DNA from: a virus | Direction: 5' to 3' (one strand) | IMG/VR virus record: IMGVR_UViG_3300044645_002359 | Location: 22,355-86,354 of that record | Length of the DNA: 64,000 nucleotides | Shown: positions 455 through 62,113 of the stretch, piece after piece | Numbering within the stretch: position 1 is the first letter of the stretch | Layout of the letters: every line of letters starts with the position of its first letter | The notes under the pieces: model-generated | What the model was told of the DNA's origin: nothing | Seen by the model: the letters and a program-made list of their open reading frames with translations, nothing else | Databases searched by the model: none | Made by a program: the position numbers and the translations under genes

Positions 455-522
455 GACCGGTCACCCGAACCGAACCGGTCGGTTTGCACCCTTGTTTCTG
501 CAGCGCAGAAACGGTTTAATAT
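455..522 (+). promoter_or_regulatory. hairpin-promoter cassette copy 1 (GACCGGT…ACCGGTC hairpin; -35 TTGTTT; palindromic spacer; -10 TTTAAT)
   Basis: Matches the recurrent cassette consensus; sits in an intergenic gap. Confidence 0.5.
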
Positions 523-583
523 TAGAGTGAAAGACTCCGAAGCCCTGTTGACACGACTCGTCGAGGGTAAATACTAAGTTCCT

Positions 584-1063
584 ATGTACTCAGCAATGAC
601 TATTGAAACTGAAGCCATCGATAAAATCGAACTGGTATTCAATCACATTCAAAATGTTCAAAGAAGTTGTTATAAGCTAGGGCTGAAACTTATGAAGCGT
701 GGAGATATTGAACTTGGTCGCAACCTAATTGCCAACGGACAAATCCACGACAACTCCAAATTTAAAGGCATTGAGTTTGCCCACCTTTTTCATTCAGACC
801 CTTTGCTTTCTGAAGTCGTCAAGCACCATCAATCTGTGAACCCTCATCACCCCGAATACTGGGGTAGCATCCACGATATGCCAAAAGTTTACGTTGCTGA
901 AATGGTGTGCGATTGGTATGCTCGGTCAACTGAGTTCGGTACCGGTATTCGAGAGTGGATTGATAGCAAAGCAACACAAAAATTCTCCTTCACTACTGAA
1001 GACCAGGTGTACAAAACCATTCAGGAAATGTTGTTCTTACTACTTGAGCCGAGCTTCAGCTAG
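584..1063 (+). CDS. hypothetical protein (159 aa)
   Basis: ORF downstream of cassette copy 1. Confidence 0.45.
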   Translation: MYSAMTIETEAIDKIELVFNHIQNVQRSCYKLGLKLMKRGDIELGRNLIANGQIHDNSKFKGIEFAHLFHSDPLLSEVVKHHQSVNPHHPEYWGSIHDMPKVYVAEMVCDWYARSTEFGTGIREWIDSKATQKFSFTTEDQVYKTIQEMLFLLLEPSFS

Positions 1064-1099
1064 CCTGGGTTATCTCTCTTTCGCACAGCGAAGGCTCGG

Positions 1100-1160
1100 G
1101 TAATCGACCGAAGACTTTCGGCTTGCACCCTTGTCTTTGCAACTCAAAACTACTATACTA
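1100..1160 (+). promoter_or_regulatory. hairpin-promoter cassette copy 2 (CCGAAgactTTCGG hairpin; -35 TTGTCT; -10 TATACT)
   Basis: Conserved cassette with the ATG at 1166, 6 nt after the -10. Confidence 0.5.
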
Positions 1161-1165
1161 TAAGT

Positions 1166-1405
1166 ATGAATTACAACGAGTTCCTCAAGCGTTTTTGGGA
1201 TAGTGCCGGAGAGGCGCGGCATAGTTTAAGGGTAGGGCAGCACCTTATGAATGAACTTGGCAAGGTGAGCCCCATTGCTTACAGCCGAATTCCCTCAGAG
1301 TTAGACCCGTTCTACAACGATCTTCTTCTCCCCAACTTCCTCAAATACCTGAAAGCAAACTGGAACGACCTGACCGATCCACTCAATTCTCCCGAACGCA
1401 AATGA
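1166..1405 (+). CDS. hypothetical protein (79 aa)
   Basis: ATG immediately after the cassette -10 (leaderless layout). Confidence 0.45.
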   Translation: MNYNEFLKRFWDSAGEARHSLRVGQHLMNELGKVSPIAYSRIPSELDPFYNDLLLPNFLKYLKANWNDLTDPLNSPERK

Positions 1406-1584
1406 CTCGTGTAGTGCCACTGTCTAACAAAGCTAAGAATCGTTTGGTCAACACCATGGAAAGTAACCCGGATATCCGCATTGAACAGCGGAAGGGTAAT
1501 AAGGTGTTTTTCATTTCAGCAAACGGAAAGTACTGTGCCTGGGTCGATCTTTCCGGCGACCCTAACTGGGTCATTGTTCTTTAA
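1402..1584 (+). CDS. hypothetical protein (60 aa)
   Basis: ATGA overlap with the upstream ORF. Confidence 0.35.
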   Translation: MTRVVPLSNKAKNRLVNTMESNPDIRIEQRKGNKVFFISANGKYCAWVDLSGDPNWVIVL

Positions 1585-1754
1585 CACACCTGTCTTTAAC
1601 CTTAACGTGACTCAACTAAAGACCGAAGTACCTTCCCAAACCATTAGCGATCCGATAGCCCTTAGCAACCCTGTTGTTGATAGTGTCCTTATTATAATAC
1701 TTTTCACCGCTCTCGTTTTCATGTTGAAACTCGCTGTGAAAGTCTCGAAAGTTC

Positions 1755-1816
1755 GGTAAACCGAACCGATCCGTTCGGTTCTCACCCTTGTTTCTGCAAG
1801 GCAGAAACGCTATGAT
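1755..1816 (+). promoter_or_regulatory. hairpin-promoter cassette copy 3 (GGTAAACCGAACcgatccGTTCGGTT; -35 TTGTTT; spacer CTGCAAGGCAGAAA; -10 TATGAT)
   Basis: Consensus copy; ATG at 1823. Confidence 0.55.
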
Positions 1817-4698: not shown

Positions 4699-6291
4699 AT
4701 GCAAGGTTCCTTTTCTGAACAGTCACTGAAGCAGTACGAAGAGTTAATCGGAGAAATAGCTTCTGTAAACTTTTCCGAATTAAATTCAGATGTGTACGAT
4801 TTCACACGTTGCGTTCGCGCGGACGGTACTGTCTACGGTTCACGAGGAAAGTGCCGCAAGGGACGTGAGGCTGCCGCAGGCGCTGGCCCTTCTCAAGCCC
4901 CGAGGAAGAGTACGGCAGCTCGAATGGCTGCTGCCGCTGAAAAGTTAGAAAGTCCTAAGCAAACTCCGGCCAAAGTTAAGGCACCGGTTCCCGCTCCCGT
5001 AGCAACTCCAGCAGTTAGAACCGTTAAAAAGCCCAGGGCAGCCCCACTCACCGCTGAGGGAAAGGCAGAGAAGAAGTGGCTCGCACAGAAAGATAAATTA
5101 GACGCGATAAAGGCAGAACACGCCAAGATGATTGCTGAGGTTGAAGCGCAGGGGCACAAAGTATACGCCACCGGTACGGGGGCCAGTATGCTTCATAGGC
5201 TGGCTAAAGAGAGGGGAATTGCTACACCGGCTCAGCTATCCAGTATGCGAATAAAACTCTTCCAACAAGAGCCTGAGCGCATCAAAAAAGAAAGGTTGGC
5301 GGAAGAAGAGAAGAAAAGACTGTCGGAAATTGCTGGAACCACTAGAGAACAGCGCAAGGGGATGGTCCGTGAGCGAATTGAGGAGCTGAAGAAGAGCAAA
5401 TATCTAGACACGTTGAAGGACGTTAATAACAACGTCGAAATGATGAAGAAGTGGATAGAAACAGACCCTTCCATGGATACCCTGAAAAACCGTGTTGCTT
5501 TGACGGCAATGCGGTCTTTCCGTGCGCAAATGGTGAGAGAAGCAAGGCTTAAGCGAGAAGAAAAGTACAGGAGCCTTGACGAATTCCTCAAAGAGTCGCC
5601 CAAGTATAACAGAACCCCTGGTTCCAGGGAGCCTATGAAAGCTAAGTATGATGACAGCGAAAGGGAGCAAAAAAGACTTGAAAAGATTTATGAAGCACAA
5701 GGGTTTAACGCTAGACCAGAACTTGTAAGGTCAAGATCTGACCTTGAGAAAAGGAAGGACATCCTAAGAGAGCCTGACGGAAGGCCACTAATTCTCTATC
5801 GAGGGGTATCGGAAGAAAGCTTAGCAAGACAGTTCCAAGGCTCTGGTCCAGACGGAGACAGACACTACCCTGGTCGGGGGGTGTATGGAAACGGGAGTTA
5901 CGCTGCTTCTGCGGGGGGAAATCCGGGTTCTTGGAACACGGACGGAAACTTTGACAAGACTGCACAAAGAACAGCTTCTTCGTATACGAGTAGTGGTGGA
6001 AACCCTAAGGATAAAGTTACAGCCTTCGCTCTTCGTTCGGACGCAAATGTGGTTCAGTTCGAAGGGACAAATCCTGCGCTAAGGGACTTAGAATACAGAA
6101 AATGGTCAAGAGAAATTAGGAAACAGGCGTCAGAGAAATTCGGGGCTGAGTTTAACGATCAGGGCGAAGCTGCCGCTGCTATGGGAATCCACGCCTATAG
6201 AGTTCCAATGAGTTCTGACGAAGACTACTGGATTATTCTAAATCGCGGTGCTGTCATCGCTGCACAAGATTCTCAACTACCAGACTTATGA
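4699..6291 (+). CDS. ADP-ribosyltransferase-like protein (R-S-E-type motifs), N-terminal DFTRCV…GKC module, K/E/A-rich central coiled coil
   Basis: C-terminal region carries LYRG…YTSSGG…QFEG, which resembles the Arg, STS and QxE motifs of ADP-ribosyltransferase toxins and T4 Alt. The N-terminal 45 aa are shared with the ORFs at 23382 and 29773. Confidence 0.5.
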   Translation: MQGSFSEQSLKQYEELIGEIASVNFSELNSDVYDFTRCVRADGTVYGSRGKCRKGREAAAGAGPSQAPRKSTAARMAAAAEKLESPKQTPAKVKAPVPAPVATPAVRTVKKPRAAPLTAEGKAEKKWLAQKDKLDAIKAEHAKMIAEVEAQGHKVYATGTGASMLHRLAKERGIATPAQLSSMRIKLFQQEPERIKKERLAEEEKKRLSEIAGTTREQRKGMVRERIEELKKSKYLDTLKDVNNNVEMMKKWIETDPSMDTLKNRVALTAMRSFRAQMVREARLKREEKYRSLDEFLKESPKYNRTPGSREPMKAKYDDSEREQKRLEKIYEAQGFNARPELVRSRSDLEKRKDILREPDGRPLILYRGVSEESLARQFQGSGPDGDRHYPGRGVYGNGSYAASAGGNPGSWNTDGNFDKTAQRTASSYTSSGGNPKDKVTAFALRSDANVVQFEGTNPALRDLEYRKWSREIRKQASEKFGAEFNDQGEAAAAMGIHAYRVPMSSDEDYWIILNRGAVIAAQDSQLPDL

Positions 6292-10673: not shown

Positions 10674-10738
10674 GGCGGAAAACCGAACGAAAACCTTCGG
10701 TTTTCACCCTTGTTTTCGCTCACCGAAAACGGTATGAT
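10674..10738 (+). promoter_or_regulatory. hairpin-promoter cassette copy 4
   Basis: AAAACCGAAcgaaaaccTTCGGTTTT hairpin; -35 TTGTTT; spacer TCGCTCACCGAAAA; -10 TATGAT. Confidence 0.55.
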
Positions 10739-10766
10739 TACTACATAAGCGAAACGAAACTCCCAG

Positions 10767-11018
10767 ATGACCATCAGCCAAATAGTTCACGAGCTATCCC
10801 TCGACAAGCTCAAAGAGCTCACTTCAGACTACGAACAGTTCGAGTGCGATGGTTCGATTCCCAACTGTTACCTTCGAAGGATGGCGGAACGGGCTCAACG
10901 AGAGCTGGGCCTGAACTCAGGCTTTCCTGTAATTCTTTGGGTGGAGAAGGTTGCGTTTGAAGCTTACCGTGAACTTTATAAGCGGTTGCAACACTTGCTT
11001 AGCGAAGAGGTCGGTTAA
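10767..11018 (+). CDS. hypothetical protein (83 aa)
   Basis: ORF downstream of the cassette. Confidence 0.4.
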   Translation: MTISQIVHELSLDKLKELTSDYEQFECDGSIPNCYLRRMAERAQRELGLNSGFPVILWVEKVAFEAYRELYKRLQHLLSEEVG

Positions 11019-11085
11019 CCGACCTTTACCTCCATCCTAAACAAGGCTATACTTAATTTAACAAGAAACTACGACGGAGCTGAAA

Positions 11086-14307: not shown

Positions 14308-14553
14308 CATCAACAGCCCTGTTTATCGGGGCTTTGCTTTTACAAACTTCCCCACTGAAACCTTACTGAAGTTTACAGAGAAAGTGAAAAAATCTAAGTT
14401 TAAGAAACTCATTCAGAAGCCACTAAGATTTCATCACCAGGACATTCACGAAGAGATTGAGGGTTTAACAGACCTTCTGCTTAACGTTTCCAACCGGCTG
14501 ATTCGAGTAGAGTCCTTGCTAGATAATCTAACTTCAAATAGCCCGAAGGGAGG

Positions 14554-14613
14554 GTAACCGAACGAAAGCCTTCGGTTCACACCCTTGTTTCTACGAGGCA
14601 GAAACGCTATACT
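14554..14613 (+). promoter_or_regulatory. hairpin-promoter cassette copy 5
   Basis: GGTAACCGAAcgaaagccTTCGGTT; -35 TTGTTT; spacer CTACGAGGCAGAAA; -10 TATACT; ATG at 14620. Confidence 0.55.
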
Positions 14614-14619
14614 TAGTTC

Positions 14620-15231
14620 ATGGAAAAGACCCCAACTACAACAAAAGAGCGGCCGATCTTTTTCAAAGGAGAAATGGTCCGAGCCATTTTGGACGGCAGC
14701 AAAACGCAGGAGCGGCGAATCGCTAAAGAGTTTGATGGCTTTCAAAATATGGATAAACTTTTGGCTCGGTTCCCTAATCAGGAAGGCTGCCCCTACGGCA
14801 AACCTGGCGATCGGTTGTGGATTCGCGAAACGTGGGCCGTTAGCAACATGTATGACAAACTCGCGCCATCGGCTATTTGCAAAGACTTGCCAAAGGGTCC
14901 TGGCCACGCACCAACCAAAGTCTTGTACCCATCAACCGACAGAATATCCGAAGGGATTAAACTTCGCCAATCTATCTTTATGCCCCGCTGGGCCAGCCGC
15001 ATCACTCTGGAGATCACTGCCATCAGGGTGGAGCAGCTGAATACAATCAGTGAGCCTGACGCAATGGCAGAAGGCGTAATTGAAGATTTCAGGCCACCTT
15101 TAGACAGGATGGGCATATGCAGCAACTACAGAGTTGCTTACCGAGATCTGTGGCAATCCATCCACGGCCCCGGATCATGGGCCGCCAACCCGTGGGTGTG
15201 GGTTGTGGAGTTTCGAAGGGTGCAGCTATGA
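14620..15231 (+). CDS. ASCH/PUA-like domain protein
   Basis: N-terminus RPIFFKGEMVRAILDGSKTQERR matches the PILF…MVRAIL.G.KTQTRR signature of phage ASCH-domain proteins. Confidence 0.5.
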   Translation: MEKTPTTTKERPIFFKGEMVRAILDGSKTQERRIAKEFDGFQNMDKLLARFPNQEGCPYGKPGDRLWIRETWAVSNMYDKLAPSAICKDLPKGPGHAPTKVLYPSTDRISEGIKLRQSIFMPRWASRITLEITAIRVEQLNTISEPDAMAEGVIEDFRPPLDRMGICSNYRVAYRDLWQSIHGPGSWAANPWVWVVEFRRVQL

Positions 15232-15824
15232 GCTACCCAATCCTGGGAAAAGGCGTGTCAAAACGACTAGGCCCAGCGGTAAACATCATTACTAGGTTTA
15301 ACACCTTTCGGCCAAGCGCACATTATCCATTGCGCGATGAGTTGGGTAGGGGTCGCTGGTATTATTCGAAAGAACTATTATCCATAGGCTATCGCCACAC
15401 CGGCAAAAACATTGTATGGGGTCAAACCATCAGCAGGGGGGAAGGTCTTCAGTTGCTTTTTGATGATCTTCTAGAACTAGAGTCCAATCTAAATCGCGAG
15501 TTGCCTTGGTTTCATCAGTGGCATTATTTGGTGCGTGCTGCTGTAATTTCAAGAGCCTTCCATGAAGGGTCCTATTTTTTCAGTAGCATGATGGGTATTG
15601 CAATGGGGAACGGCCCTTGGGGCACGCTTAACGGCTCGCATCGCCCTAGCTTATGCCTTGAAGAATGTCTTTCCTCGCAATGGGAGCACCTTGACGAACA
15701 ACAAAGAGAACTACGCATTGCTGAGCTTGATTTAGTGGACTTAAAAGACAAGCTTATGGAGCTGAAAGAAAAAGAAAAACCCCACGTAGGGCACTCGGGG
15801 AACGCTCGGAGGATACAACCATGA
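15228..15824 (+). CDS. hypothetical protein (about 198 aa)
   Basis: ATGA-coupled ORF. Confidence 0.4.
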   Translation: MSYPILGKGVSKRLGPAVNIITRFNTFRPSAHYPLRDELGRGRWYYSKELLSIGYRHTGKNIVWGQTISRGEGLQLLFDDLLELESNLNRELPWFHQWHYLVRAAVISRAFHEGSYFFSSMMGIAMGNGPWGTLNGSHRPSLCLEECLSSQWEHLDEQQRELRIAELDLVDLKDKLMELKEKEKPHVGHSGNARRIQP

Positions 15825-16060
15825 CTCGCCATATGGGCGGAAACTTTGATGATTTCCTTAGTGATGACGGTCTGTTGGAAGATTGCGAATTGATGGCCCT
15901 AGGACGGGTTTCAGGCCATGAAACTAGCCAGGGGTTGGATAGTAAAGTGATTGAGGAACTAAGGAATATCCACCACGAGCTGCTTGAAAAATCAAAGAAC
16001 CTCGACCCTGATTCCGAACGCATCCTTAGGGAAAATCTCTGGGACTTGTATGACTCTTGA
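15821..16060 (+). CDS. hypothetical protein (79 aa)
   Basis: ATGA overlap. Confidence 0.4.
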   Translation: MTRHMGGNFDDFLSDDGLLEDCELMALGRVSGHETSQGLDSKVIEELRNIHHELLEKSKNLDPDSERILRENLWDLYDS

Positions 16061-16277
16061 GATCAATATGGATGATTTCTGGTTGCATGAAGAAACCAAG
16101 CATGAACTCCTACTTATGAGAGCCCGTAAAAAGGTTTGCTCTTATAATCAGATTATACCGTCCGAGGATTTCACCACAGATAGCTACCTAGTTTTTCTAG
16201 AGTACGCTTCACCGAAGGAGCTGTCTGAGGATATTATAACAGAAGCTACATTTCAGAAAATTAACCCGATAGGGTGA
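16050..16277 (+). CDS. hypothetical protein (about 75 aa)
   Basis: ORF overlapping the upstream stop. Confidence 0.35.
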   Translation: MTLEINMDDFWLHEETKHELLLMRARKKVCSYNQIIPSEDFTTDSYLVFLEYASPKELSEDIITEATFQKINPIG

Positions 16278-16579: not shown

Positions 16580-16687
16580 TTACCAAAACTAAACGGGCGG
16601 TTAACCGCCATAGCCCCCAGGTGACAGTCAGTGTAGGATGACCTTGGATTTGATCCCCCTTTTTTACAAACCCGTACCCCGGCAGCA

Positions 16688-17299: not shown

Positions 17300-17366
17300 G
17301 GGGCGGTAAACCGCCCTACCCGGCTCGGTTTCCCGGCTTGTTTCTGCCACGCAGACACGGTATCAT
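17300..17366 (+). promoter_or_regulatory. hairpin-promoter cassette copy 6
   Basis: GGGCGGtaaaCCGCCC plus CCGGctcggtttcCCGG; -35 TTGTTT; spacer CTGCCACGCAGACA; -10 TATCAT; ATG at 17373. Confidence 0.55.
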
Positions 17367-17372
17367 TAGTTC

Positions 17373-18038
17373 ATGAACGAAGCTCCCTCGAAAACCATGA
17401 AACCGCTTCCTGAAGCTGTGACACAAGCTATCCTGTTGAAACCAGGGGACAGCGTCCAAGTCCCGGCTGTCGGCGTAAAAACAAAGGACGGTTGGAAGTA
17501 CGAGACCCAAGTCCCTTACCTCCACTTTCGGCAACAACCTGTAGAACCCGGTCTGTATCTAGTCACAGACATTTGGATGCACCCGAACGCGACAAATCCG
17601 GCTGACCCCTCTTCTTATTGTTACACTCTAAGGAGAATCCGTAGTAAGCGACGTCTTACTAGCTTAGAGTCAACCTGGAGGGAAAAGTACAAAAAGTCTG
17701 GATTTCAAGAGAAGTACTTTTCTTCCCAAAAAGTGAACTACAATTGCCTCGATTGGGATCAACTTATTAAGGAAGGTAAAGTTAAAACCGATGTGTACAA
17801 ACCGGGTGAGAAATTCAACCTAGACGAGTTCAAGAAGGATCTTGGTCAAGTGCTTTACAAGCACAAAGCAACTTTCCGACTTCGTCGCAGTTATGACGGG
17901 CCTTGGGATGCTGAGGGTTTTAATGTACTGATGGTATCTGTTCAAGGGGAAGATAAGGCCACACTTGCGACCGAGTGGCTGGACTTCCCTATCAGACGGT
18001 CGGAACCCACCTGGAAGGACGGTAAGCCGAACCGCTGA
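17373..18038 (+). CDS. hypothetical protein (221 aa)
   Basis: Leaderless ATG after the cassette; the C-terminal …DGKPNR is encoded by the downstream hairpin. Confidence 0.5.
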   Translation: MNEAPSKTMKPLPEAVTQAILLKPGDSVQVPAVGVKTKDGWKYETQVPYLHFRQQPVEPGLYLVTDIWMHPNATNPADPSSYCYTLRRIRSKRRLTSLESTWREKYKKSGFQEKYFSSQKVNYNCLDWDQLIKEGKVKTDVYKPGEKFNLDEFKKDLGQVLYKHKATFRLRRSYDGPWDAEGFNVLMVSVQGEDKATLATEWLDFPIRRSEPTWKDGKPNR

Positions 18039-18082
18039 GGGCGGTTAACCGCTCTTGTCCACACCCGAAAAACCTCTATAAT
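18029..18082 (+). promoter_or_regulatory. hairpin-promoter cassette copy 7 (-10 TATAAT)
   Basis: AACCGCtgagGGCGGTTAACCGC hairpins; -35 TTGTCC; -10 TATAAT; ATG at 18089. Confidence 0.5.
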
Positions 18083-18088
18083 GGAACC

Positions 18089-18496
18089 ATGGAACAAAAT
18101 CTGCGCCACTACCTGATCGACTGGCTTAACGAGTGGGGCTACAATGCCCTGGAAGAGTTGGCCGAATTTGACATCCGCGTTGCTCGCGATGAGCGTTACC
18201 CGAACCTCTTCAACCTGAAGTACGGCAGCGTGATGGCGGACAAGTCGCTGCCGATCGTTCGCGCTTGTCGTGGTGCTGTGGTTGAGCGTGTTGATAACGA
18301 TGGCGACCACTCGCCGTACTACCGCCTGGTAGCGTATGCTTTCGATCGTTTCTTCAACGTCGGCGAAGGTTATTGTCACGAACTAGATTGGTCGCATACC
18401 AAGGTTTATGAGAAGTACGATGGTTGCTTACATGCTGAGACTAAGGTAGAAACCTCAAAAGGTACAAACTATCAAAGAGATTTGCGAGAAGCCTGA
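18089..18496 (+). CDS. T4 Rnl1-like RNA ligase N-extein (motif I KYDG) fused to split-intein IntN; IntN is frameshifted and continues in another frame to about 18718
   Basis: DWLNEWGY…IVRACRGAVVERVD…DRFFNVGEG…KVYEKYDG tracks the T4 RnlA N-terminal region. This is followed by C|LHAETKVET (intein block A), and after a shift of one base by …YKITLENGNTIVLTGNHKVWD (block B, close to the gp41-1 IntN YKITLEDGKEIICSEEHLF). Confidence 0.6.
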   Translation: MEQNLRHYLIDWLNEWGYNALEELAEFDIRVARDERYPNLFNLKYGSVMADKSLPIVRACRGAVVERVDNDGDHSPYYRLVAYAFDRFFNVGEGYCHELDWSHTKVYEKYDGCLHAETKVETSKGTNYQRDLREA

Positions 18497-39645: not shown

Positions 39646-39676
39646 ACTTACAGTTCAAACAACCCTAACAAACAAA

Positions 39677-45861: not shown

Positions 45862-45926
45862 AGACGGTTAACCGAACGGAAACTGACGGTTTCCTCCCTT
45901 GTTTTGCTCCGGCGAAACCGCTATAG
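45862..45926 (+). promoter_or_regulatory. hairpin-promoter cassette copy 15
   Basis: ACGGTTAACCGaacggaaactgACGGTTTCC; -35 TTGTTT; spacer TGCTCCGGCGAAAC; -10 TATAGT. The conserved ATGAAC at 45935 opens a 14-codon ORF before the real gene. Confidence 0.5.
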
Positions 45927-45955
45927 TAGGTTCATGAACGAGCCTACTTTTACGT

Positions 45956-48573: not shown

Positions 48574-48638
48574 GGGCGGTAAACCGAACGGAAACTTTCG
48601 GCTTCCCACCTTGGCTCTGGCTCGCAAACCAGGTATAG
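48574..48638 (+). promoter_or_regulatory. hairpin-promoter cassette copy 16
   Basis: GGGCGGTAAACCGAACGGaaactttCGGCTTCCCACC; -35 TTGGCT; -10 TATAGT; ATG at 48646. Confidence 0.5.
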
Positions 48639-48645
48639 TTGTTGT

Positions 48646-49107
48646 ATGAACGAACTCGAAGCCTACGTGATGGTCGGTGCCCCTGGCTCTGGAAAGTCGA
48701 CCCAAGTTTCTAAGCTGGTCGCCAGCCACCCGGATGCCATTGTGATTTCCGGTGATGATATCCGCGCTGAACTCTACGGCGACGCAAACATCCAAGGCAA
48801 TTACGTCGAAATTCACGACCGTATGCTGGAAATTCTCGAAGAGAATGTCGGTCGCACCGTAATCATGGATGGCACCCACTACAGGGCCGCTTACCGCAAG
48901 GAAGCTATCGCTATGCTGAACTCATACGGGTACAACAAAGTTGTTGCTGTAGTAGTCGACAAACCTCTTGCTGTTTGCTTGCGACAGAACTCTTTGCGGG
49001 ACCGTAAAGTTCCCGAGCATGTGATTGAGCGCATGCACAACTCTTTGCAAGCTTCCCTCAAGAGCATCATCAACGAACCCTTCCACCGAATTGACTTTAT
49101 ATACTGA
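48646..49107 (+). CDS. P-loop polynucleotide 5'-kinase domain protein (T4 Pnk kinase-like)
   Basis: Walker A VMVGAPGSGKST, then …ISGDDIRAELYG, similar to the Pnk kinase N-domain. Confidence 0.6.
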   Translation: MNELEAYVMVGAPGSGKSTQVSKLVASHPDAIVISGDDIRAELYGDANIQGNYVEIHDRMLEILEENVGRTVIMDGTHYRAAYRKEAIAMLNSYGYNKVVAVVVDKPLAVCLRQNSLRDRKVPEHVIERMHNSLQASLKSIINEPFHRIDFIY

Positions 49108-51014: not shown

Positions 51015-51077
51015 CGGATAACCGAACCGCTGAAGGCGGTTCACCCCCTTGTCTCTGAAGAGATGGCACGCTATGAT
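51015..51077 (+). promoter_or_regulatory. hairpin-promoter cassette copy 17
   Basis: AACCGCtgaaGGCGGTT; -35 TTGTCT; -10 TATGAT; ATG at 51084. Confidence 0.5.
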
Positions 51078-51083
51078 TATAGT

Positions 51084-51221
51084 ATGAAAAACGACTCGAT
51101 TCGCTGCAAACTCGGACCCCGTGAGAAGGGCCGGAAACATAAGGGCAAGGCGAAGCCCCAAGCTCTGCGCCAGGCGAAATCCCGTCGTGCTAACCTCCTT
51201 CAAAAACTCGCTGCAAAATGA
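51084..51221 (+). CDS. small basic protein (45 aa, K/R-rich)
   Basis: Leaderless ATG directly after the cassette; ATGA-coupled to the next ORF; below the track cutoff. Confidence 0.35.
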   Translation: MKNDSIRCKLGPREKGRKHKGKAKPQALRQAKSRRANLLQKLAAK

Positions 51222-52633: not shown

Positions 52634-52886
52634 GTCAAACGTTCAGGCTGCTTCGGCAGCCCGGAAGTAGGTGACAAAGGAACGCATTCGTTCAGTCTGT
52701 TTACAGGCCGGGATTGTCTCCAAAGGAACGCGCAAAGCAACCCTAGGAGAACACAATGATTAACACTTCAGACAATTCAACCAAAGGTCTCAACCCTCTG
52801 TTTCTTATCAAAAAAAGCCTTATCAAAGAAAGCAAACTCAAAGAAGCACAGCTTGAGATGGCCAAGAAACCCTAAATTCTATAAAA

Positions 52887-53147
52887 ATGAGCTATATCCC
52901 TGTTTTAGTATTGCTTCCAGAGCCAGAAGCCGAAGAAATTCACCGATCTGTAAACCTTTCTAACCATGAATGGCTTGTTCTTTCTCAATGCACAGAATCT
53001 TTTTCTGCTGCTTACCGGGAAAGTCACAGCCAAGTGATTGCAACTTATGTCACTCGTGGGCAGCTAGATTTAGCTGTTGAAGAGGCGGCGAAAATGAACG
53101 GTTTGCTACAGCAACTCGATAAAATTCAAGCCAAACTTGTATCCTGA
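52887..53147 (+). CDS. hypothetical protein (86 aa)
   Basis: ORF. Confidence 0.4.
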   Translation: MSYIPVLVLLPEPEAEEIHRSVNLSNHEWLVLSQCTESFSAAYRESHSQVIATYVTRGQLDLAVEEAAKMNGLLQQLDKIQAKLVS

Positions 53148-53554: not shown

Positions 53555-53772
53555 AGAAGGATCAAAAAGAAATAAGTTTAAAACCTCCGATTAAAATTGG
53601 CCTAAAAGAGGCTCAAAACCGCAGGGATTTGATGGCGACTATGGCAGAGATGAGCCAGCACTTACCTAACGTTTCTTCGGAAAAGCAAGAGCTAGTGGCT
53701 CAGTTCATGGTAGAACAACTCCGTGGGGCGGCTAACCGAACCGAACCGTTCGGTTCTAACCCTGACTCCTAA
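53551..53772 (+). CDS. hypothetical protein (73 aa)
   Basis: ATGA overlap. Confidence 0.35.
   Translation: MKKDQKEISLKPPIKIGLKEAQNRRDLMATMAEMSQHLPNVSSEKQELVAQFMVEQLRGAANRTEPFGSNPDS
53728..53758 (+). terminator. cassette-type hairpin without a promoter half (CCGAACcgaaccGTTCGG)
   Basis: Hairpin only; the next ATG is at 53772. Confidence 0.4.
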
Positions 53773-54050
53773 TGGAGACCCAAGCTAAACTAAAATTACC
53801 GAAACAACTTCCAATGGTTACCGAATCCGAAATTTCCATTACGTTTAACAACGAATCTTGGAAGCTCTTGTACGACCTTTTAAAAGTGAGGCAATATTCT
53901 CTCGAGCGCGATGTTGCCCGGGCAGACGAAACTGGCTCAATGGACTTTGCGCAAATTCTCCTGGACGAAGCTGCTGAATGCAAGGAGATTTCCGATCTGA
54001 TCTCATTTAACATTACTCTCAACAACTTATCAGAAGCCTTTGTAGATTAA
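53772..54050 (+). CDS. hypothetical protein (92 aa)
   Basis: ORF. Confidence 0.4.
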   Translation: METQAKLKLPKQLPMVTESEISITFNNESWKLLYDLLKVRQYSLERDVARADETGSMDFAQILLDEAAECKEISDLISFNITLNNLSEAFVD

Positions 54051-54614: not shown

Positions 54615-54759
54615 CTGCCGAGAGTAAACTGGAAACCTTGGACCCCTTAACTCCTTGGTACGAGTTTCTTTCATACTGCGAAGTTTGTCGGAGTCTGGGT
54701 GTGACTCCTTCAGTGGGCCGTTTCACTCGCTATCAAAACTACCTGAAGACAATCAAACA

Positions 54760-55704
54760 ATGACAAACGAACTAACCAGCCCCATGTTAGATAGAGCCAA
54801 AGGCTGCTTAATCGGACTCGCAATCGGCGATGCCTTGGGTGCGCCAGTAGAATTTGGCAGTTACGGGTCTTTTGACCCTGTTGTTGGGTTCAGGGATGGA
54901 GGACCATTCAACCTTAAAGCGGGCCAATGGACCGATGATACTTCTCAGGCTTTGTGCTTGGCCGACTCCATTCTGTCCAACAAAGGGTTTAGCCAAGGCG
55001 ACTTCCTAAACAGGATGATTAATTGGAAGCAGTATGGACACAACAGCAGTACTGGGAAGTGTTTTGACATTGGAATCGGAACGGCCCATGCTCTCCAGTC
55101 TTATAGCAGCACAGGCAAGGTGCCAGTGAATACAAATTCAGGTGGTAACGGAAACATAATGAGGCTCGCACCGGTTGCTATAGCTTTCTTTAGGGATAAC
55201 TACAAAACCCAAGAGATTGCCAGCCTGTCGAGTCTAACTACCCATGGCCACATTTCAGCATTAACTTGCGCGGACTTCCTCAGTGTGATGCTAAGGTCTT
55301 ATATCGTAAGTAGTGATTGCGAAGGGGACATTACATATAACTGTCAAACTAACGAGGAAACTTATGAAATTGACCTGTGTAGTGTGACTCTGGAAAGAAT
55401 AGCGAATGCTGTGACTTCTGAGGAAAGTGAGTGGCATAATGTAAGCGGATTCTCAACCGACACTTTGTGTGCAGCTTTGTATTGTTTCTTCAACACGGAG
55501 TCCTTTGAAGAATGTGTATTGGCTGCGGTAAACCTTGGCGGAGACGCGGATAGCGTAGGCGCCGTAGCTGGACAAATTGCAGGAGCTTACTACGGGCTTT
55601 CCGGTATACCTCAAAGATTCATTGTTGGATTGCAGGACAGCGATAAGTTTCTGAATTTGGCAGAACAATTATTTAACTTGTATCGAAACAAAGATGAAAA
55701 CTAA
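54760..55704 (+). CDS. ADP-ribosylglycohydrolase (ARH/DraG family)
   Basis: LDRAKGCLIGLAIGDALGAPVEF…GQWTDDTSQAL is the ARH signature. Confidence 0.75.
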   Translation: MTNELTSPMLDRAKGCLIGLAIGDALGAPVEFGSYGSFDPVVGFRDGGPFNLKAGQWTDDTSQALCLADSILSNKGFSQGDFLNRMINWKQYGHNSSTGKCFDIGIGTAHALQSYSSTGKVPVNTNSGGNGNIMRLAPVAIAFFRDNYKTQEIASLSSLTTHGHISALTCADFLSVMLRSYIVSSDCEGDITYNCQTNEETYEIDLCSVTLERIANAVTSEESEWHNVSGFSTDTLCAALYCFFNTESFEECVLAAVNLGGDADSVGAVAGQIAGAYYGLSGIPQRFIVGLQDSDKFLNLAEQLFNLYRNKDEN

Positions 55705-57237: not shown

Positions 57238-57303
57238 GGGGGGTTAACCGAACCGAAACGGTCGGTCTCCGCCCTTGTTTTCGCTCCGAGAAAACGCTAT
57301 AGT
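57238..57303 (+). promoter_or_regulatory. hairpin-promoter cassette copy 19
   Basis: GGGGGGTTAACCGAACCGaaacGGTCGGTCTCCGCCC; -35 TTGTTT; spacer TCGCTCCGAGAAAA; -10 TATAGT; ATG at 57310. Confidence 0.55.
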
Positions 57304-57309
57304 AAGAGC

Positions 57310-57915
57310 ATGGAACTCAAGTCTACCCTCTCCTCCTCGTTCTTCCGTCGGTTCTGCCCCGACCCCACCGTGATGTATGATCTTGGCGATCTCCACGCTG
57401 AGTTAAACGCTCGCTTCTTCAACGGTGAACTGCCTGTCCTTCCTTCCGACACTTACTCCGACAAGAACGGCGAGACTCGCACTCGCTTCGGCACCCTAAA
57501 GTGGGATGGCCGCATGGGACAGCGCACTCTGGGCACCTACAAGGCTTCGGCTCGCCGTGGACACGGAACCATCCGCCTGGCCCGCTCGATCGCCTCGGAC
57601 CCTGTGAAGACCCGCAGCGTTCTTCTGCACGAGATGCTCCACAAGTACCTTGACTTCAAAGGTATGGACGACGGTATTCTCGGACACGGCGAGAATTTCG
57701 TCACCGAAGCGAAACGCATCAATGAAAGCTGTCAAGCCGCTGGAGTTGACTACCGTATTCACTTCTACGATGAAGAAGTTACCAAGGACGAACCCTTCGT
57801 GATTTCCGAACTTGCTAAGAAAGAGATCTACTGCGGTAAAGACCTCGATGTAGCTCGCAACATGCAGGCTATTATGAGGGCAGCGTTCGACCAAAAGTTC
57901 GAATACTTCCAGTGA
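57310..57915 (+). CDS. HExxH zinc-metallopeptidase-like protein (SprT/Wss1-like)
   Basis: LLHEMLHKYLD motif in a 201-aa protein. Confidence 0.4.
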   Translation: MELKSTLSSSFFRRFCPDPTVMYDLGDLHAELNARFFNGELPVLPSDTYSDKNGETRTRFGTLKWDGRMGQRTLGTYKASARRGHGTIRLARSIASDPVKTRSVLLHEMLHKYLDFKGMDDGILGHGENFVTEAKRINESCQAAGVDYRIHFYDEEVTKDEPFVISELAKKEIYCGKDLDVARNMQAIMRAAFDQKFEYFQ

Positions 57916-58371: not shown

Positions 58372-59859
58372 ATGACTATGGCAATAGAAAGTACAAAGCA
58401 AGCCGCTGCGGCAGTCTGCGATAAAAATACCAAATGCGACAATAGCTGCTCCGTTGGTGAAACCGTTGTCTGTGACTTACGCTCTCGCTCTGCCCCACGC
58501 AGAATTGACCTCGATACACTTTACAAGTGCGACCCGAAAGATTACATCGGTTACTTCGCTGACGATTCCTCCTACGACAATCTTATTCAAGAAGACTGCG
58601 ACGTTTACGTTGCCGGTGTCAAAGTTGTCGCTTTTCGTAAGTCCCTGTTCCCAAAACTGAAGGAAGGTTCCAAGGGCGACCCAAAGACTTGGGAATACTT
58701 CCGCTGGGCAGCCCGCGATCTGTATTCTGACCAGCGCGGTCTGGTTGCCGGTCGGGAACTTACAACCGATCTCGAAATCAGAGTAACTAATGGTATTCTA
58801 AACTTCTTCAAAAAAGCCATTGCTGGGCAAGTCACAGAAGTTGAAGAGGCTCTTAAAATTGTTGCTCTTTCTCCAGATCATGGTAAGCTTACAGTAAGAA
58901 TCACCGAAGTCAAGAAAGACTATCCGGAAATTGCCAAAGCTCTTGAGCCCATCGAAGCCGAACTTCGTAAGAAAACGACGAGCGAAGAAAGAAAAGTAGA
59001 GCTGAAGAAAGCAAAGGGAGAAGAACTTGCGAAGTGGTTCCCGACCTGGTTGACACGAACTTGGGCTAAGGCTGAAAACAAAGTAGAGGCAGCTAAGCTA
59101 GGGGACGACAGGTATATCAGCAAGCAGCTGCGTTCAAACAAGTGCTATTCTAACGTTCTTGGTGCCTTCGATAGAGGGGCAAGAAATCCTTACGGTCGCT
59201 TAACCGCTACTACTCTTAAAAACTACGACGGTTTCGTGAGTCATACAGACATCTACCAAACCGCTTGTGCCGCTCTGAAAGAAACCCTAAACACACAAGA
59301 AAACCCCCGTTGGGATCGTCTTCACGACCGCTTCGGTAACGTGAAAGATCCACATTATAACCTTTTCGGTACGGTATTTACCGCCCTCACCTTAAACTGG
59401 AATTTCCGCTGTGCTATGCACTATGACGGGAACAATTGCGAAGGCGGTATTGCCGTTCTTACCGCAATGACTCAAGGCGAGTACGAAGGTCATTACCTTG
59501 TATTCCCAGAAATCCGGTGCGCCTTTGATCTTCGTGACGGGGACTTTATTGCAGGTGACAACCAGGGTTTGATTCATGGCAACACCGCTATGATTCCAAA
59601 GACTCCTGATGCGGAAAGAGTATCCTTCGTTTTCTATTCTCGCGAGCGTATGACCTTGCTTGATGACATGGAGTGCGAGGACTGCCGCCGCGATTTCATG
59701 AAATACGCAGCTGAGAACTACACTCAGTACGGTAAAGGTCACAAAACCTGGAATGGTGTGTGGCAGGGAATGTGGAAGTCTTCGGAATGGATGGACTTCA
59801 AAGAACTTAACGGTGCGGAGCGTTGCTCAAACACCAACTACTGGGGAACTGAAAATTAA
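58372..59859 (+). CDS. two-domain protein: unknown N-domain plus 2OG-Fe(II) dioxygenase-like double-stranded beta-helix (DSBH) domain (HxD…H…RxS); fused version of 60571 plus 61062
   Basis: MHYDGNN…LIHGN…RVSFVFYSRE facial triad with a 2OG-binding Arg-x-Ser; paralogous over its full length to the two following split ORFs. Confidence 0.5.
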   Translation: MTMAIESTKQAAAAVCDKNTKCDNSCSVGETVVCDLRSRSAPRRIDLDTLYKCDPKDYIGYFADDSSYDNLIQEDCDVYVAGVKVVAFRKSLFPKLKEGSKGDPKTWEYFRWAARDLYSDQRGLVAGRELTTDLEIRVTNGILNFFKKAIAGQVTEVEEALKIVALSPDHGKLTVRITEVKKDYPEIAKALEPIEAELRKKTTSEERKVELKKAKGEELAKWFPTWLTRTWAKAENKVEAAKLGDDRYISKQLRSNKCYSNVLGAFDRGARNPYGRLTATTLKNYDGFVSHTDIYQTACAALKETLNTQENPRWDRLHDRFGNVKDPHYNLFGTVFTALTLNWNFRCAMHYDGNNCEGGIAVLTAMTQGEYEGHYLVFPEIRCAFDLRDGDFIAGDNQGLIHGNTAMIPKTPDAERVSFVFYSRERMTLLDDMECEDCRRDFMKYAAENYTQYGKGHKTWNGVWQGMWKSSEWMDFKELNGAERCSNTNYWGTEN

Positions 59860-59883
59860 CCCTTAGGTCGGTTACCGGAGCGG

Positions 59884-59922
59884 AGTAGATTCAAATTTAC
59901 TCTGCTTTTATCCAGCTATATT
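59884..59922 (+). terminator. rho-independent terminator (GGAGTAGAttcaaattTACTCTGC plus TTTTAT)
   Basis: Stem-loop followed by a T-tract. Confidence 0.5.
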
Positions 59923-59947
59923 AGAACTGAAGTTTACCAAGAGAGAA

Positions 59948-60172
59948 ATGACAAACTTTGACGACCTCTTTGAAGCAGTAGAATCTTCTTCATACGACTT
60001 GTCCAGAAACCTGGACACCATACGTTATGAAATTGAAGGTCTCACTAGGGAATATGAGGAACTACTTAATCTGTTGCAAGTTTCTGACCATCAGTCAGCG
60101 GTAGAAGCAATTATTTCTCTTAAGTCTAAACGAGATCTTACTGCACCTCGGAGAGGATCGGAAACGCTTTAA
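59948..60172 (+). CDS. hypothetical protein (74 aa)
   Basis: ORF. Confidence 0.4.
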   Translation: MTNFDDLFEAVESSSYDLSRNLDTIRYEIEGLTREYEELLNLLQVSDHQSAVEAIISLKSKRDLTAPRRGSETL

Positions 60173-60262
60173 CGAAGTCCATATCAAAAGCTAATAACAC
60201 TTATAGAGACCTTGTGGATTTGAGCTAACTCTCTTTAATTTCACCACTATACGACAACAAAC

Positions 60263-60574
60263 ATGACGACTGAACCGCAAGCCGAAAGTGAAGAACAATC
60301 CTCTCAGGAAACTTTACAAACAACTGTTACTATCAATCTACCCCCAGATTTTGCAGAGGCTTTCAACTCTCTGGCAGAACGCGAAGGACTATCTCAAGAT
60401 GCGCTGGTTATGCGCTCTCTTGGCCTTTACTCCGTAGCATCGCAAGCTGAGAAGGGGGGTTACGCTTTGTCTTTCACCCGGATTGAAGGAACCAACGACC
60501 TGACTGCCAAGGAAGCTATTCGCATCGAAGACGAGCCAGAATCTAACTTGTTTATTCCAGGCAAGAGGCAATGA
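60263..60574 (+). CDS. hypothetical protein (103 aa)
   Basis: ORF. Confidence 0.4.
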   Translation: MTTEPQAESEEQSSQETLQTTVTINLPPDFAEAFNSLAEREGLSQDALVMRSLGLYSVASQAEKGGYALSFTRIEGTNDLTAKEAIRIEDEPESNLFIPGKRQ

Positions 60575-61065
60575 TTCGAGTAGCAATAGCGAAAGAATTG
60601 CAGTCTAGAGCTGAACCATTGCGGATCGATAGGGGAACCCTTGAAAACTGCCCTCGCAGTGAATACATTGGACAATTCCCCAAGACAACAGATTATGACA
60701 CTGTCATAGACAAAGACTGTGACGTTTACGTCTCAGGTGTGAAAGTCTTGTCCTTCCGAAAAGCTCTCTTTCCAATTCTTTCCGAGGGTTCTTCCAAACA
60801 GAAAGAAACTTGGGACTTTTTCCGAGCAGCTTCAAAAGAAGTTTATGGCACCCAAAGAGGTGTCGTTGCGGGCACAGAGTTTACAACTCGTCCCGAGTCA
60901 CGCTTAACTAAAGGCCAGGTTGCTTTCTTCGCCGGTGCTTCAGTGGGTTTGATTACAACGCTTCCTCAAGCGCGAGAGGCTCTGGAAAGTTCCAACGAAC
61001 TCACTAGCAAGACTCTCAAGATCAAGTATATAAAGAAAGACTACCCAGAACTTGCGGAAAAATGA
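60571..61065 (+). CDS. N-domain paralog (split copy) of the 58372 protein
   Basis: RIDRGTLENCPRSEYIGQFP…DCDVYVSGVKVLSFRKALFP parallels RIDLDTLYKCDPKDYIGYFA…DCDVYVAGVKVVAFRKSLFP. Confidence 0.5.
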   Translation: MIRVAIAKELQSRAEPLRIDRGTLENCPRSEYIGQFPKTTDYDTVIDKDCDVYVSGVKVLSFRKALFPILSEGSSKQKETWDFFRAASKEVYGTQRGVVAGTEFTTRPESRLTKGQVAFFAGASVGLITTLPQAREALESSNELTSKTLKIKYIKKDYPELAEK

Positions 61066-62057
61066 AGCCCTTGGAGGCAGAAATTCGCACACTGAGCCCC
61101 GAAGACCCGAAACTAGAAAGTCTGAGAAACCAGAGAAGGGAACTACTTTGGTGTTGGTTTGAACCTTGGTTACTGGAAGTTTGGTTGCCCTCTGAAAACA
61201 AAGTAGAAGAAGTCAAAAAAGTTTTAAACACTTACATTAGCTCTCAGTTAAATTTCAACCATTGCTACAGTAACGTCCTGGGGGCAATTGACCGTGGGGC
61301 AAGATTCCCCTATGGTCGTTTGAGCGGAACCACTCAGAGATACTATGAGCAGTTCTCTAAATACAGAGACATTTATTACGCGGCCTGCGAAGGTTTCAGG
61401 TACAATTTTCCGGAGACCTGGAGCAAAGTTAAAGAAGTAATTTCGAAGGCTAAAGACCCTAACTACAACTTGTTCGGCACTGCCTTTACGAGCGTAACTC
61501 TAAACTTCAATTTTAAGACTGCCTACCACGTTGACAAGAACAACTTGAAAGGGGGGCTGGCTGTCTTGACTGCGTTCACAAAGGGAGACTATGAGGGCCA
61601 CTACTTAGTGTTCCCCGAAGTTAAGCTAGCTTTCAACTTGAGAGACGGGGACTTTATCGTAGGAGACACTCAAGTCCTACTTCACGGGAACAGCCCCATG
61701 ACAAAACTCACTGAGGATGCTGAGCGGGTTTCTCTGGTTTTCTACTCTCGAGAGAATATGACCCGATTGGACGATCTTGATTGTGAAGAATGCCGAAAAC
61801 AATTCATGAAGTTTTCACTTCAGTCCCTGAAGGAACGGGGCAAAGATCACAAAGACTGGAGGGGCGTGTGGCAAGGAATGTGGACTTCTCAGGAGTGGTT
61901 AGACTTTCGAAAAGAAAGAAACTTGGAACACTGTTCAAACTCCAACTGGCAGCTTTCTTCGCCTTACGAGAATGAAGTTACGAAAGAGATGAAGCTGTTT
62001 AAGGACGATCCAGGTGAGGGATGGAAACTCGTACAAGTATTTACACAAGGTCGGTAA
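61062..62057 (+). CDS. 2OG-Fe(II) dioxygenase-like (HxD…H…RxS) paralog, ATGA-coupled to 60571
   Basis: AYHVDKNN…LLHGN…[10 protein letters not shown]; about 55% identical to the C-half of 58372. Confidence 0.5.
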
Positions 62058-62113
62058 CCGCCCGGAAGCCTTCGGCTTCCTCCCTTGTTTCTGATCCACA
62101 TAAACGCTATGAT
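62049..62113 (+). promoter_or_regulatory. hairpin-promoter cassette copy 20
   Basis: GGTCGGTAACCGCCCGGAAGCCttcGGCTTCC; -35 TTGTTT; spacer CTGATCCACATAAA; -10 TATGAT; ATG at 62120. Confidence 0.55.

Follow-up and report, generated by a model that had tools for sequence, protein, structure and literature searches.

What is the function of a sequence unit that recurs, always in the same orientation, in the short gaps between the genes of a virus? This question is raised by a stretch of 64,000 nucleotides of the IMG/VR virus record IMGVR_UViG_3300044645_002359 (positions 22,355–86,354 of the record; the whole stretch is called the window below), in which a unit of ~70 bases is repeated. A preliminary description of the window had noticed about 20 intergenic copies and had proposed that the unit is a fusion of an upstream terminator and a downstream early promoter, analogous to the promoter early stem–loop (PeSL) cassettes of phage T4. 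We suggest that the unit is a one-directional terminator–promoter–start-codon cassette of a large phage which resembles the PeSLs, would yield leaderless messages, and has a structured promoter spacer. Judging from the sequences, we put the probability of this explanation at roughly 0.7.

The number of copies by far exceeds the chance expectation, which for the cassette is less than one in the window. Already the single parts of the cassette are found much more often than expected: there are 18 matches to CACCCTTGTTT with at most one mismatch (2.0 expected), 20 matches to CGGTAAACCGAAC with at most two mismatches (1.2 expected), and 19 matches to CGGTWAMCCG (0.35 expected). The skeleton TTG-N20-TAnnnT-N6-ATG is matched 14 times where 0.38 matches are expected, and all 14 matches are on the + strand and within cassettes. 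The motif search also returned an in-gene CGGTTAACCG at position 32200. The window copies were aligned to give an nhmmer profile, and a covariance model was built from 73 non-redundant cassettes, for which the copies of the window and of its relatives were pooled. When the window was scanned on both strands with this model and with the filters off, we found 19 full cassettes with scores of 47–96 bits, all of them on the + strand and intergenic. Besides these the scan gave three degenerate or partial copies (53710–53809, 30068–30166, and 10993–11071) and no further matches; a bare hairpin at 16596, which the scan did not return, is the fourth remnant. The about 20 intergenic copies are thus confirmed as 19 full cassettes and some remnants. 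The full cassettes lie 15–185 nt past the stop codon of the upstream gene. The preliminary description had also considered that copies might turn out to lie within longer true genes, and this is the case for none of them.

The full cassettes share one design, of which c1787 (1751–1825) is a typical example. Positions are given relative to +1, which we defined as the purine 7 nt after the −10 box. The cassette begins with an upstream dyad element, (G)GGnCGGTWAACCG followed by 12 nt and CGGTTyyCnCCC, which extends from about −75 to −36. The −35 box TTGTTT occupies the positions −35 to −30, and the spacer dyad GTTTCTGC-NNN-GCAGAAAC the positions −33 to −15. After the dyad follow CG(C/G), the −10 box TATRRT at −12 to −7, six bases, and an ATG at +1. 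The dyad had previously been described as a 14-nt palindrome; it is actually 19 nt long (8-3-8) and overlaps the last four bases of the −35 box. The geometry is nearly free of insertions and deletions (indels), as CTTG and the −10 box lie 20 nt apart in 17 of the window copies (19 nt in the other two), and the −10 box and the ATG always 6 nt apart in the window. The spacing of 17 bp between both boxes that had been reported before is found in 17 of the 19 window copies, the remaining two having 16 bp.

Several properties of the downstream part indicate a promoter. In the alignment of the 73 cassettes conservation is highest in the columns of CTTG, of TAT, and of the T that closes the −10 box, and these positions are those which weigh most in σ70-type recognition. 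The −10 box reads TATAGT in 28, TATGAT in 19, TATACT in eight, and TATAAT in eight cassettes (together 63), and the −35 box is TTGTTT in 44 of 69. The base at +1 is a purine in all 73 cassettes (63 A and 10 G) and is preceded by a pyrimidine in 69 of them. The unit therefore combines TTG, a spacer of 17 ± 1 bp, TAnnnT, a purine start about 7 nt further on, and a pyrimidine before it, as expected for a σ70-type promoter. Thus, the sequences strongly support the assignment of this half to a promoter of the host's primary σ factor (σ70-type), with a presumed activity and timing.

Two findings go beyond the preliminary description, namely a leaderless geometry with the ATG exactly 7 nt past the −10 box and a covariation within the spacer dyad. 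Concerning the former, the base at +1 belongs to an ATG in 52 and to a GTG in six of the 73 cassettes, so that a start codon is found at +1 in 58 of 73. In the window the +1 ATG opens an open reading frame (ORF) of 45–243 codons in 14 of the 19 copies. That these ATGs are real N-termini is supported by the ORF lengths and by Pfam domains which begin at residue 8 of the protein of gene 48646 and at residue 7 of the protein of gene 62120; the latter domain boundary also argues that the cassette c62084 is not part of a longer gene. A Shine–Dalgarno (SD) signal is not enriched before the 73 internal ATG genes of the window, where an SD-like 4-mer is found in 14% compared with 17% in the background. 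The leaders of the internal genes contain 42% A and 15% G in the region −15 to −1, with A/C-rich strings such as AACAAACAAA or CAACAACAACAA. As the SD signal is missing throughout the window, an SD-independent or leaderless initiation would fit the genome as a whole. The geometry places the predicted 5′ ends at the start codon, and the messages of the cassettes would accordingly be leaderless. The copies in the window and their remnants are as follows.

458–529, + strand: c491 with the −10 box TTTAAT; GTG at +1 with 16 open codons, next gene at 584 and hence leadered.
1097–1168, + strand: c1130; ATG at +1 (1166), ORF of 79 codons.
1754–1825, + strand: c1787, the best copy (96 bits), with the upstream dyad element at 1751–1782, the −35 box TTGTTT at 1788–1793, the spacer dyad at 1790–1808, the −10 box TATGAT at 1811–1816, and the ATG at +1 (1823).
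10676–10747, + strand: c10709; ATA at +1 and hence leadered, ORF from 10767.
14552–14622, + strand: c14584; ATG at +1 (14620), ORF of 203 codons.
17304–17375, + strand: c17337; ATG at +1 (17373), ORF of 221 codons.
18020–18091, + strand: the variant c18054 (47 bits) with a 16-bp spacer, the −10 box TATAAT, and no dyad; ATG at 18089, 135 codons.
24017–24088, + strand: c24050; ATG at +1 (24086), ORF of 107 codons.
26353–26435, + strand: c26397, whose upstream element contains 11 extra nt that are self-complementary; the relative L013 shows that the RNA ligase gene really begins at 26462, which gives a leader of 29 nt.
30314–30385, + strand: c30347; ATG at +1 (30383), ORF of 243 codons.
32462–32532, + strand: c32495 with a 16-bp spacer; ATG at +1 (32530), ORF of 117 codons.
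36366–36437, + strand: c36399; ATG at +1 (36435), ORF of 147 codons.
38138–38209, + strand: c38171; ATG at +1 (38207), ORF of 67 codons.
39582–39654, + strand: c39616 with the −10 box TAAAAT; +1 is the A of AGT, followed by an A/C-rich leader of 25 nt and a DUF932 gene at 39677.
45865–45936, + strand: c45898; the +1 ATG opens 14 codons, with ATA in its place in the L015 orthologue; gene start at 45956.
48577–48648, + strand: c48610; ATG at +1 (48646) of a 153-codon AAA_33 kinase, Pfam domain from residue 8.
51015–51086, + strand: c51048 with a weak dyad; ATG at +1 (51084), ORF of 45 codons.
57241–57312, + strand: c57274; ATG at +1 (57310), SprT-like ORF of 201 codons.
62052–62122, + strand: c62084; ATG at 62120 of a 194-codon Rv2179c-like exoribonuclease, Pfam domain from residue 7.
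53729–53763, + strand: hairpin-only copy (upstream dyad element, 40 bits) which has lost the promoter half; next ATG at 53772.
30077–30154, + strand: degenerate tandem cassette (22.7 bits) about 230 nt upstream of c30347, with CGGCAAGCCG…TTCGGTTCTCACGCTTC, then an 8-bp hairpin, then TATACT.
11005–11053, + strand: diverged cassette (18.3 bits) with the hairpin GAGGTCGGTTAACCGACCTT, then TTTACC-17-TATACT and no dyad; 32 nt upstream of the ATG of the PRPP synthetase gene (11086).
16596–16609, + strand: solitary GGCGGTTAACCGCC hairpin; L025 has a full cassette and a gene here.

Two hairpin-only copies had been named before, at 53728 and at 2307. The former is indeed a remnant of the cassette, whereas the latter was rejected as it is a different stem, GGGGGC-TTCG-GCCCCC, which stands right after the gene of the transfer-messenger RNA (tmRNA) and is unrelated to the cassette. 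Two further details of the copies were observed. The +1 ATG of c26397 opens a mini-ORF of six codons (26433–26453) that is out of frame with the RNA ligase; it may be either a short upstream ORF or what is left of a start codon brought by a cassette. At five sites the TAA of the upstream ORF lies inside the conserved CGG-TAA-ACCG loop (1757–1759, 14555–14557, 17307–17309, 36369–36371, and 62055–62057), and the cassette thus can also provide the stop codon of the preceding frame. Some of the upstream ORFs that end in this TAA are short and may not be genes; the TET/JBP gene at 61062–62057 is real.

Is the upstream element a terminator? Folded as RNA, it has a mean minimum free energy of −14.9 kcal/mol. 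The predicted stem is long and interrupted, ends in CCC, and is followed by UUGUUU(C/U); in 48 of 69 cassettes its 3′ end lies 0–2 nt before TTGTTT. An intrinsic (Rho-independent) terminator is laid out in this manner. If TTGTTT served as its U-tract and at the same time as the −35 box, this would explain why the cassette has TTGTTT instead of TTGACA. Two fixed stem models, CGG/CCG with its flanks and CCGAAC/GTTCGG, were rejected, as neither of them covaries beyond shuffles. In addition, a register-free test in which native and cross-paired duplex energies were compared gave no signal for the outer GGG/CCC and the inner stems (p = 0.32 and z = −0.4). Since the element folds no better on the + than on the − strand, the upstream hairpin could not be assigned to the RNA level, where its role is putative. 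The preliminary interpretation is right in essence: of the fused terminator and promoter that had been proposed, the promoter half finds strong support in silico, whereas the terminator half, which shows no compensatory changes, is plausible only.

The spacer dyad behaves differently from the upstream element, because here the two arms do covary. In the arms 81% of the cells are paired compared with 71% in shuffled alignments, and 67 cells are changed on both sides compared with 27 in the shuffles, a value which none of 500 shuffles reached. When the 3′ partners are slid by 1–3 columns only 40–52% of the cells are paired. When arms are cross-paired, they lose 2 kcal/mol of stability relative to the native pairs (z = −8.9). 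The arms are found, for example, as CTGC/GCAG, TCGC/GCGA, TTGC/GCAA, TTCC/GGAA, and TTTTTTC/GAAAAAA, variants with a shifted centre occur, and c10709 and its orthologue at L081:16074 differ in two compensated pairs of the dyad. The loop sequence is unconstrained. At least seven of the eight Watson–Crick pairs are present in 38 of 69 cassettes (~55%) and at most five in 21 of 69 (~30%). The mismatches comprise 23 G·U and 29 A·C, and the folding energies of the + and − strands show no asymmetry. The missing G·U bias and the missing strand asymmetry point to a self-complementarity at the DNA level that is under selection, or to palindrome-correcting mutation, and not to an RNA of the + strand. 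To our knowledge there is no promoter-control mechanism that explains a base-pair covariation inside a σ70-type spacer.

How stable is the association of the cassettes with their genes? The cassette was recovered in related phage genomes, where the preliminary description had advised to look for it: a strict cassette pattern matched at 39 loci, which are spread over some 25 IMG/VR contigs with lengths of up to 279 kb, and the profile gave 128 further matches. The relatives are 65–92% identical to parts of the window. In the distant relatives L016, L022, and L009 a cassette stands before nearly every small gene, and the cassettes form co-oriented arrays of about one per kb (12 in 13 kb, eight in 8 kb, and six in 7.3 kb, respectively). 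In one subfamily the upstream part consists of two direct copies of GGGCGGTT(T/A)ACCG with a spacing of 22 nt, and CCGGCTTG is found in place of CACCCTTG.

Comparison with the relatives shows that cassettes come and go. Out of 44 indel gaps 18 touch a cassette, a share that may reflect an enrichment and is far from exclusive. The cassette c491 is cleanly absent from L023 and L081, and the relatives which lack c491 and c14584 have a nucleotide identity of 85–91%. In L081 the A/C-rich leader ACCAACCAACCAGCC and ATGACAACC… replace the cassette c14584 and ATGGAAAAG… before the same gene, and this gene has a different start codon there. This swap suggests that the exchanged unit includes the start codon and about two codons, which would also explain why ATGGAAAAC follows so many cassettes. 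In L025 the cassette c14584 is missing together with most of its gene. L081 (ENA contig GROS21-1…scaffold_58, 104.8 kb; 85–91% identity) carries at 15094–16062 a gene for a pstS-like phosphate-binding protein that is absent from the window, and its insertion point lies between the upstream gene and the orthologue of c10709, exactly at the 5′ edge of the latter. L015 shares the upstream gene and the cassette c39616 and has a different gene after it. As a side observation, L081 also contains genes for EF-Ts and a radical-SAM protein upstream of the position that corresponds to the start of the window.

Taken together, we suggest that the cassette could act in the following way. The RNA coming from the upstream gene would fold into the long interrupted hairpin, TTGTTT would provide the U-tract, and the upstream transcription would stop. 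The same TTGTTT would then be the −35 box for the host polymerase with its σ70-type factor, acting across the 17-bp spacer together with the −10 box TATAGT or TATGAT. Transcription would start at the purine 7 nt past the −10 box, and since this purine belongs to the start codon in ~70–80% of the copies, the first gene would be translated from a leaderless message. Compensatory changes would keep the 8-3-8 dyad self-complementary, probably for a promoter control at the DNA level in which a regulator would bind to the dyad or the dyad would be extruded as a hairpin; of all steps, we are least certain of this one. Finally, with the ~70 bp shared by all copies the cassettes could be gained, lost, and swapped as units together with the ATG and about two codons, and would also mark some gene indels as the T4-type PeSLs do. 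An early timing of the transcripts and a recombination mechanism are presumed.

Which phage carries the cassettes? The source is a large uncultured phage, most likely a cyanophage, and related contigs suggest a genome of ~280 kb. All genes of the window are on one strand, and the window carries tRNAs, a permuted tmRNA, and a glutamine riboswitch; besides many genes of unknown function there are genes for nicotinamide adenine dinucleotide salvage, for RNA repair, and for nucleotide metabolism as well as for TET/JBP oxygenases. Some proteins match weakly to proteins of the cyanophages PSS2 and S-CBWM1. The two-piece permuted tmRNA is located at 2103–2287 (ARAGORN span 2069–2378), scores 73 bits against RF04321, and has the predicted tag ANKIVKFERTAVAV, which we take to resemble cyanobacterial tags. 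It adjoins the 3′ side of the leaderless ORF that c1787 would drive and is closed by the GGGGGC-TTCG-GCCCCC hairpin at ~2310–2330, which may be the terminator of the tmRNA gene; in relatives an extra 304 nt with an ORF of 82 aa lies between this ORF and the tmRNA. The glutamine riboswitch aptamer (glnA leader, RF01739) at 52638–52688 upstream of the ORF 52887–53147 scores 41 bits compared with the gathering score of 35 and is one hint at a cyanobacterial host. Searches of the window and of one cassette with megablast and blastn against 50,697 phage records revealed neither a relative nor a cassette, and a protein search for relatives in the collections searched returned metagenomic sequences only and no cultured relative. 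The best match of the NAMPT protein, 'Acinetobacter phage MD-2021a', was discarded as a mislabelled bacterial contig. An origin from a host regulon or a prophage was also rejected, as the cassette has no match in 185,579 species genomes and the 40 matches of the bare dyad are scattered over phyla with no taxon enriched.

A number of observations weigh against the cassette as we propose it. Five of the 19 window copies (c491, c10709, c26397, c39616, and c45898) start no gene at +1 and are leadered, and 26 of the 44 indels touch no cassette. In the upstream element no compensatory change was found in any register tested, and hardly any variation is seen in its CGG/CCG/CGG cores or in the 22-nt spacing of these, which fits a protein-binding site at least equally well. 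A U-tract is missing after the hairpin-only copies (53729 and 16596), and neither the upstream element nor the dyad folds better on the + than on the − strand. In the dyad A·C mismatches are as frequent as G·U, so that an RNA role of the dyad is unsupported; moreover, no DNA-binding protein that could read it was found among the 121 ORFs of the window. The host, in turn, is deduced solely from the permuted tmRNA, the glutamine riboswitch, the weak cyanophage protein matches, and the pstS gene of a relative.

A rival explanation is that the unit consists of a promoter and protein-binding sites and contains no terminator. CGGTWAACCG and a CGGTT half-site two helical turns downstream (at about −69 and −47) would then bind a phage or host transcription factor, for example, an activator, an architectural protein, or a recombination protein, and the hairpin potential would be a by-product of the repeated palindromic motif. 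The cores are in fact 90–100% conserved, the flanks of the would-be stem vary without compensation, and in a divergent subfamily a full CGGTTTACCG palindrome forms the second site. The CGGT–CGGT spacing is fixed at 22 nt, and the sole insertion variant has 33 nt, that is, one extra helical turn; the same 11-nt insertion is, however, self-complementary and extends the stem, so that this variant (c26397 and relatives) fits both readings. The position directly after stop codons is that of a terminator, the predicted structure stops at the U-rich TTGTTT in 48 of 69 cassettes, a DNA-binding protein was not found in the window, and a GC-rich element upstream of the −35 box corresponds to no known type of UP element. 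We consider this explanation rather unlikely on the whole; nevertheless, with nearly invariant cores, no covariation, strand symmetry, and missing U-tracts a protein-binding role stays a serious rival. A further proposal concerns the dyad only and is compatible with the terminator–promoter–start-codon cassette: the dyad could be the operator of a dimeric phage repressor which shuts off the whole class of promoters, for example, when early gives way to late transcription. This is somewhat more probable than the binding-site explanation, though still on the doubtful side. The dyad is two-fold symmetric and located exactly between the −35 and −10 boxes, its symmetry acts at the DNA level according to the mismatches and the missing strand asymmetry, and a reader protein would be phage-encoded given that none of the 185,579 species genomes contains the cassette and no host taxon is enriched in the bare dyad. 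Repeated phage operators are also known, and Cluster O mycobacteriophages have more than 30 dyad copies (PMC4351075). On the contrary, a homodimer with fixed half-sites would not select for a covariation of this kind, as the arm sequences are not conserved and show compensated changes even between orthologues; the loop is unconstrained, ~30% of the cassettes have a poor dyad, and the window yielded neither a helix-turn-helix nor a ribbon-helix-helix protein.

The covariation could instead be accounted for by the structure itself. The dyad might form a DNA hairpin or cruciform by which an otherwise canonical σ70-type promoter is gated; it could, for example, sense supercoiling after the entry of the genome, or a phage factor specific for the structure could bind to it. 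The unit would be a portable module which is copied before genes and turns leadered internal genes into independently transcribed leaderless ones; we regard this as speculative and considerably less probable than an operator. It is even less likely that both hairpins are processing sites or 3′/5′ stabilisers in a polycistronic RNA whose 5′ ends an RNase would produce by cutting within the AU-rich stretch GCUAUGAUUAUUGU. Their RNA folds are stable (means of −15 and −6 kcal/mol, each with z of about −2) and the segment from the dyad to the ATG is AU-rich, but TTG, 17 bp, TAnnnT, 6 nt, and a purine with a pyrimidine at −1 are the signature of σ70-type initiation and not of cleavage, neither G·U preference nor strand asymmetry is seen, and no Rfam family matches the cassettes. 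Finally, the spacer hairpin could be extruded from supercoiled DNA to form an N4-like promoter for a phage-encoded RNA polymerase, in which case the σ70 boxes would be coincidental. The stem of up to 8 bp and the 3-nt loop have the size of those of the N4 early promoters, a covariation without wobble bias suits a DNA hairpin, and folding with DNA parameters gives −5 to −8 kcal/mol. Yet the canonical −35 and −10 boxes, the best-conserved part of the cassette, would have to be there by chance, the N4 loop has its centre at −11 and particular bases in both loop and stem (PMC4496689) and here the centre is at −24 and the loop free, and among the genes of the window we saw none for an RNA polymerase, which makes this the most improbable of the explanations. 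We therefore prefer the terminator–promoter–start-codon cassette, with the operator as a possible addition.

Several other features of the window are of note. Two tRNA-like genes of 118 nt (36049–36166 and 37256–37373) match the tRNA model from end to end and have an insert of ~46 nt in the anticodon arm that is too short for a group I intron; ARAGORN does not call these two genes. They flank c36399 and its leaderless ORF. At 43797–43888 ARAGORN predicts an unusually long tRNA-Ile(TAT) of 92 nt, which is absent from the Rfam gathering scan. Two genes for TET/JBP-family 2OG-Fe(II) oxygenases are located close together at 58372–59859 and 61062–62057 and suggest hypermodified DNA bases. The gene at 4699–6291 codes for a protein of 530 aa whose C-terminal half resembles a 'minor head / head morphogenesis' protein of the cyanophage PSS2, and one distant metagenomic homologue of this protein carries an ADP-ribosyltransferase domain (PF03496). 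An ADP-ribosylglycohydrolase gene (54655–55704) and a gene with a NADAR domain are also found in the window.

Leaderless phage genes as such are not new, examples being λ cI when transcribed from PRM and genes of the Thermus phage φYS40. Leaderless first genes behind SigA-type promoters have also been described for PL1, PR2, and PL2 of the Cluster O mycobacteriophages (PMC4351075). In contrast to these few isolated promoters, the leaderless start appears to be the rule for a repeated cassette of a probable cyanophage here (~75% of 73), and it is joined with a terminator-like element and a spacer dyad. The Cluster O phages also possess a 17-bp repeat, TGTTCGGNNNCCGAACA, with many intergenic copies, some recombination between them, and an unknown function (PMC4351075). 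The cassettes share with this repeat the many intergenic copies of a short GC-rich dyad, and its core resembles GTTCGGTAAACCGAAC of c1787 (1751–1766). The arms of the Cluster O repeat are, however, invariant 7-mers around a 3-nt centre, and its copies are often found in genes and mostly away from promoters, whereas here only CGG-N4-CCG is invariant and the element always lies within a promoter cassette. The likeness of the sequences is probably coincidental.

The promoters of the N4 virion RNA polymerase (vRNAP) are hairpins with the loop centre at −11 and with specific bases in loop and stem (PMC4496689). Like them, the cassette has a short inverted repeat with a 3-nt loop inside the promoter, and non-conserved stem bases matter through their pairing alone. 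An N4-type promoter was nevertheless rejected because of the dyad centre at −24, the free loop, the canonical −35 and −10 boxes, and the lack of a vRNAP gene in the window. Nor does the dyad look like a classical operator, as its arms covary and no cognate DNA-binding domain was found among the ORFs of the window.

The closest parallel is the PeSL, a stem–loop terminator just upstream of an N17 σ70-like early promoter, which is found in hyperplastic regions and near indels (PMC2839356, PMC4122927). PeSLs have been described for the T4-like phages RB49/phi1, T4/PST, and KVP40/nt-1 (Arbiol et al. 2010, PMC2839356; Comeau et al. 2014, PMC4122927). In both systems a σ70-like promoter with a spacer of 17 bp directly follows a stem–loop (a predicted one in the cassette), and the −35 consensus TTGYVH of KVP40/nt-1 accommodates TTGTTT. 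Both have dozens of co-oriented copies in short gaps between small genes that are mostly of unknown or accessory function, and degraded 'half' copies, and in the window, too, some copies lie at indels and gene replacements between close relatives. Nevertheless, there are clear differences. The cassette has its start codon at +1 with neither a leader nor an SD sequence, and upstream of the −35 box it carries the GC-rich conserved CGGTWAACCG…CGGTT with an adjoining C(A/C)CCC instead of an AT-rich tract and a variable stem. In addition, it contains a covarying 8-3-8 dyad in the spacer, its −35 box would double as the U-tract of the terminator, and the phage is not visibly T4-like. For the PeSLs promoter and terminator activity as well as mini-circles have been demonstrated experimentally, and for the cassette promoter and terminator are predicted. 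As the SD sequence and the AT-rich tract of the PeSLs are not found, we suggest that the unit works like a PeSL and is not a member of the PeSL family.

If this holds true, the cassettes would be of interest for their systematic leaderless starts, their self-carried start codon, and the unexplained covariation inside a σ70-type spacer. They would predict a widespread leaderless translation in the host, probably a picocyanobacterium, where it is little documented, and would provide a rule for the annotation of gene starts and transcription units in these metagenomic genomes. Compared with the PeSLs the design would be markedly more compact, as one hexamer would be both U-tract and −35 box and the cassette brings its own start codon. 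Thus, the idea that regulatory cassettes serve as recombination linkers would be extended from the T4-like coliphages and vibriophages to an unrelated lineage of large uncultured phages.

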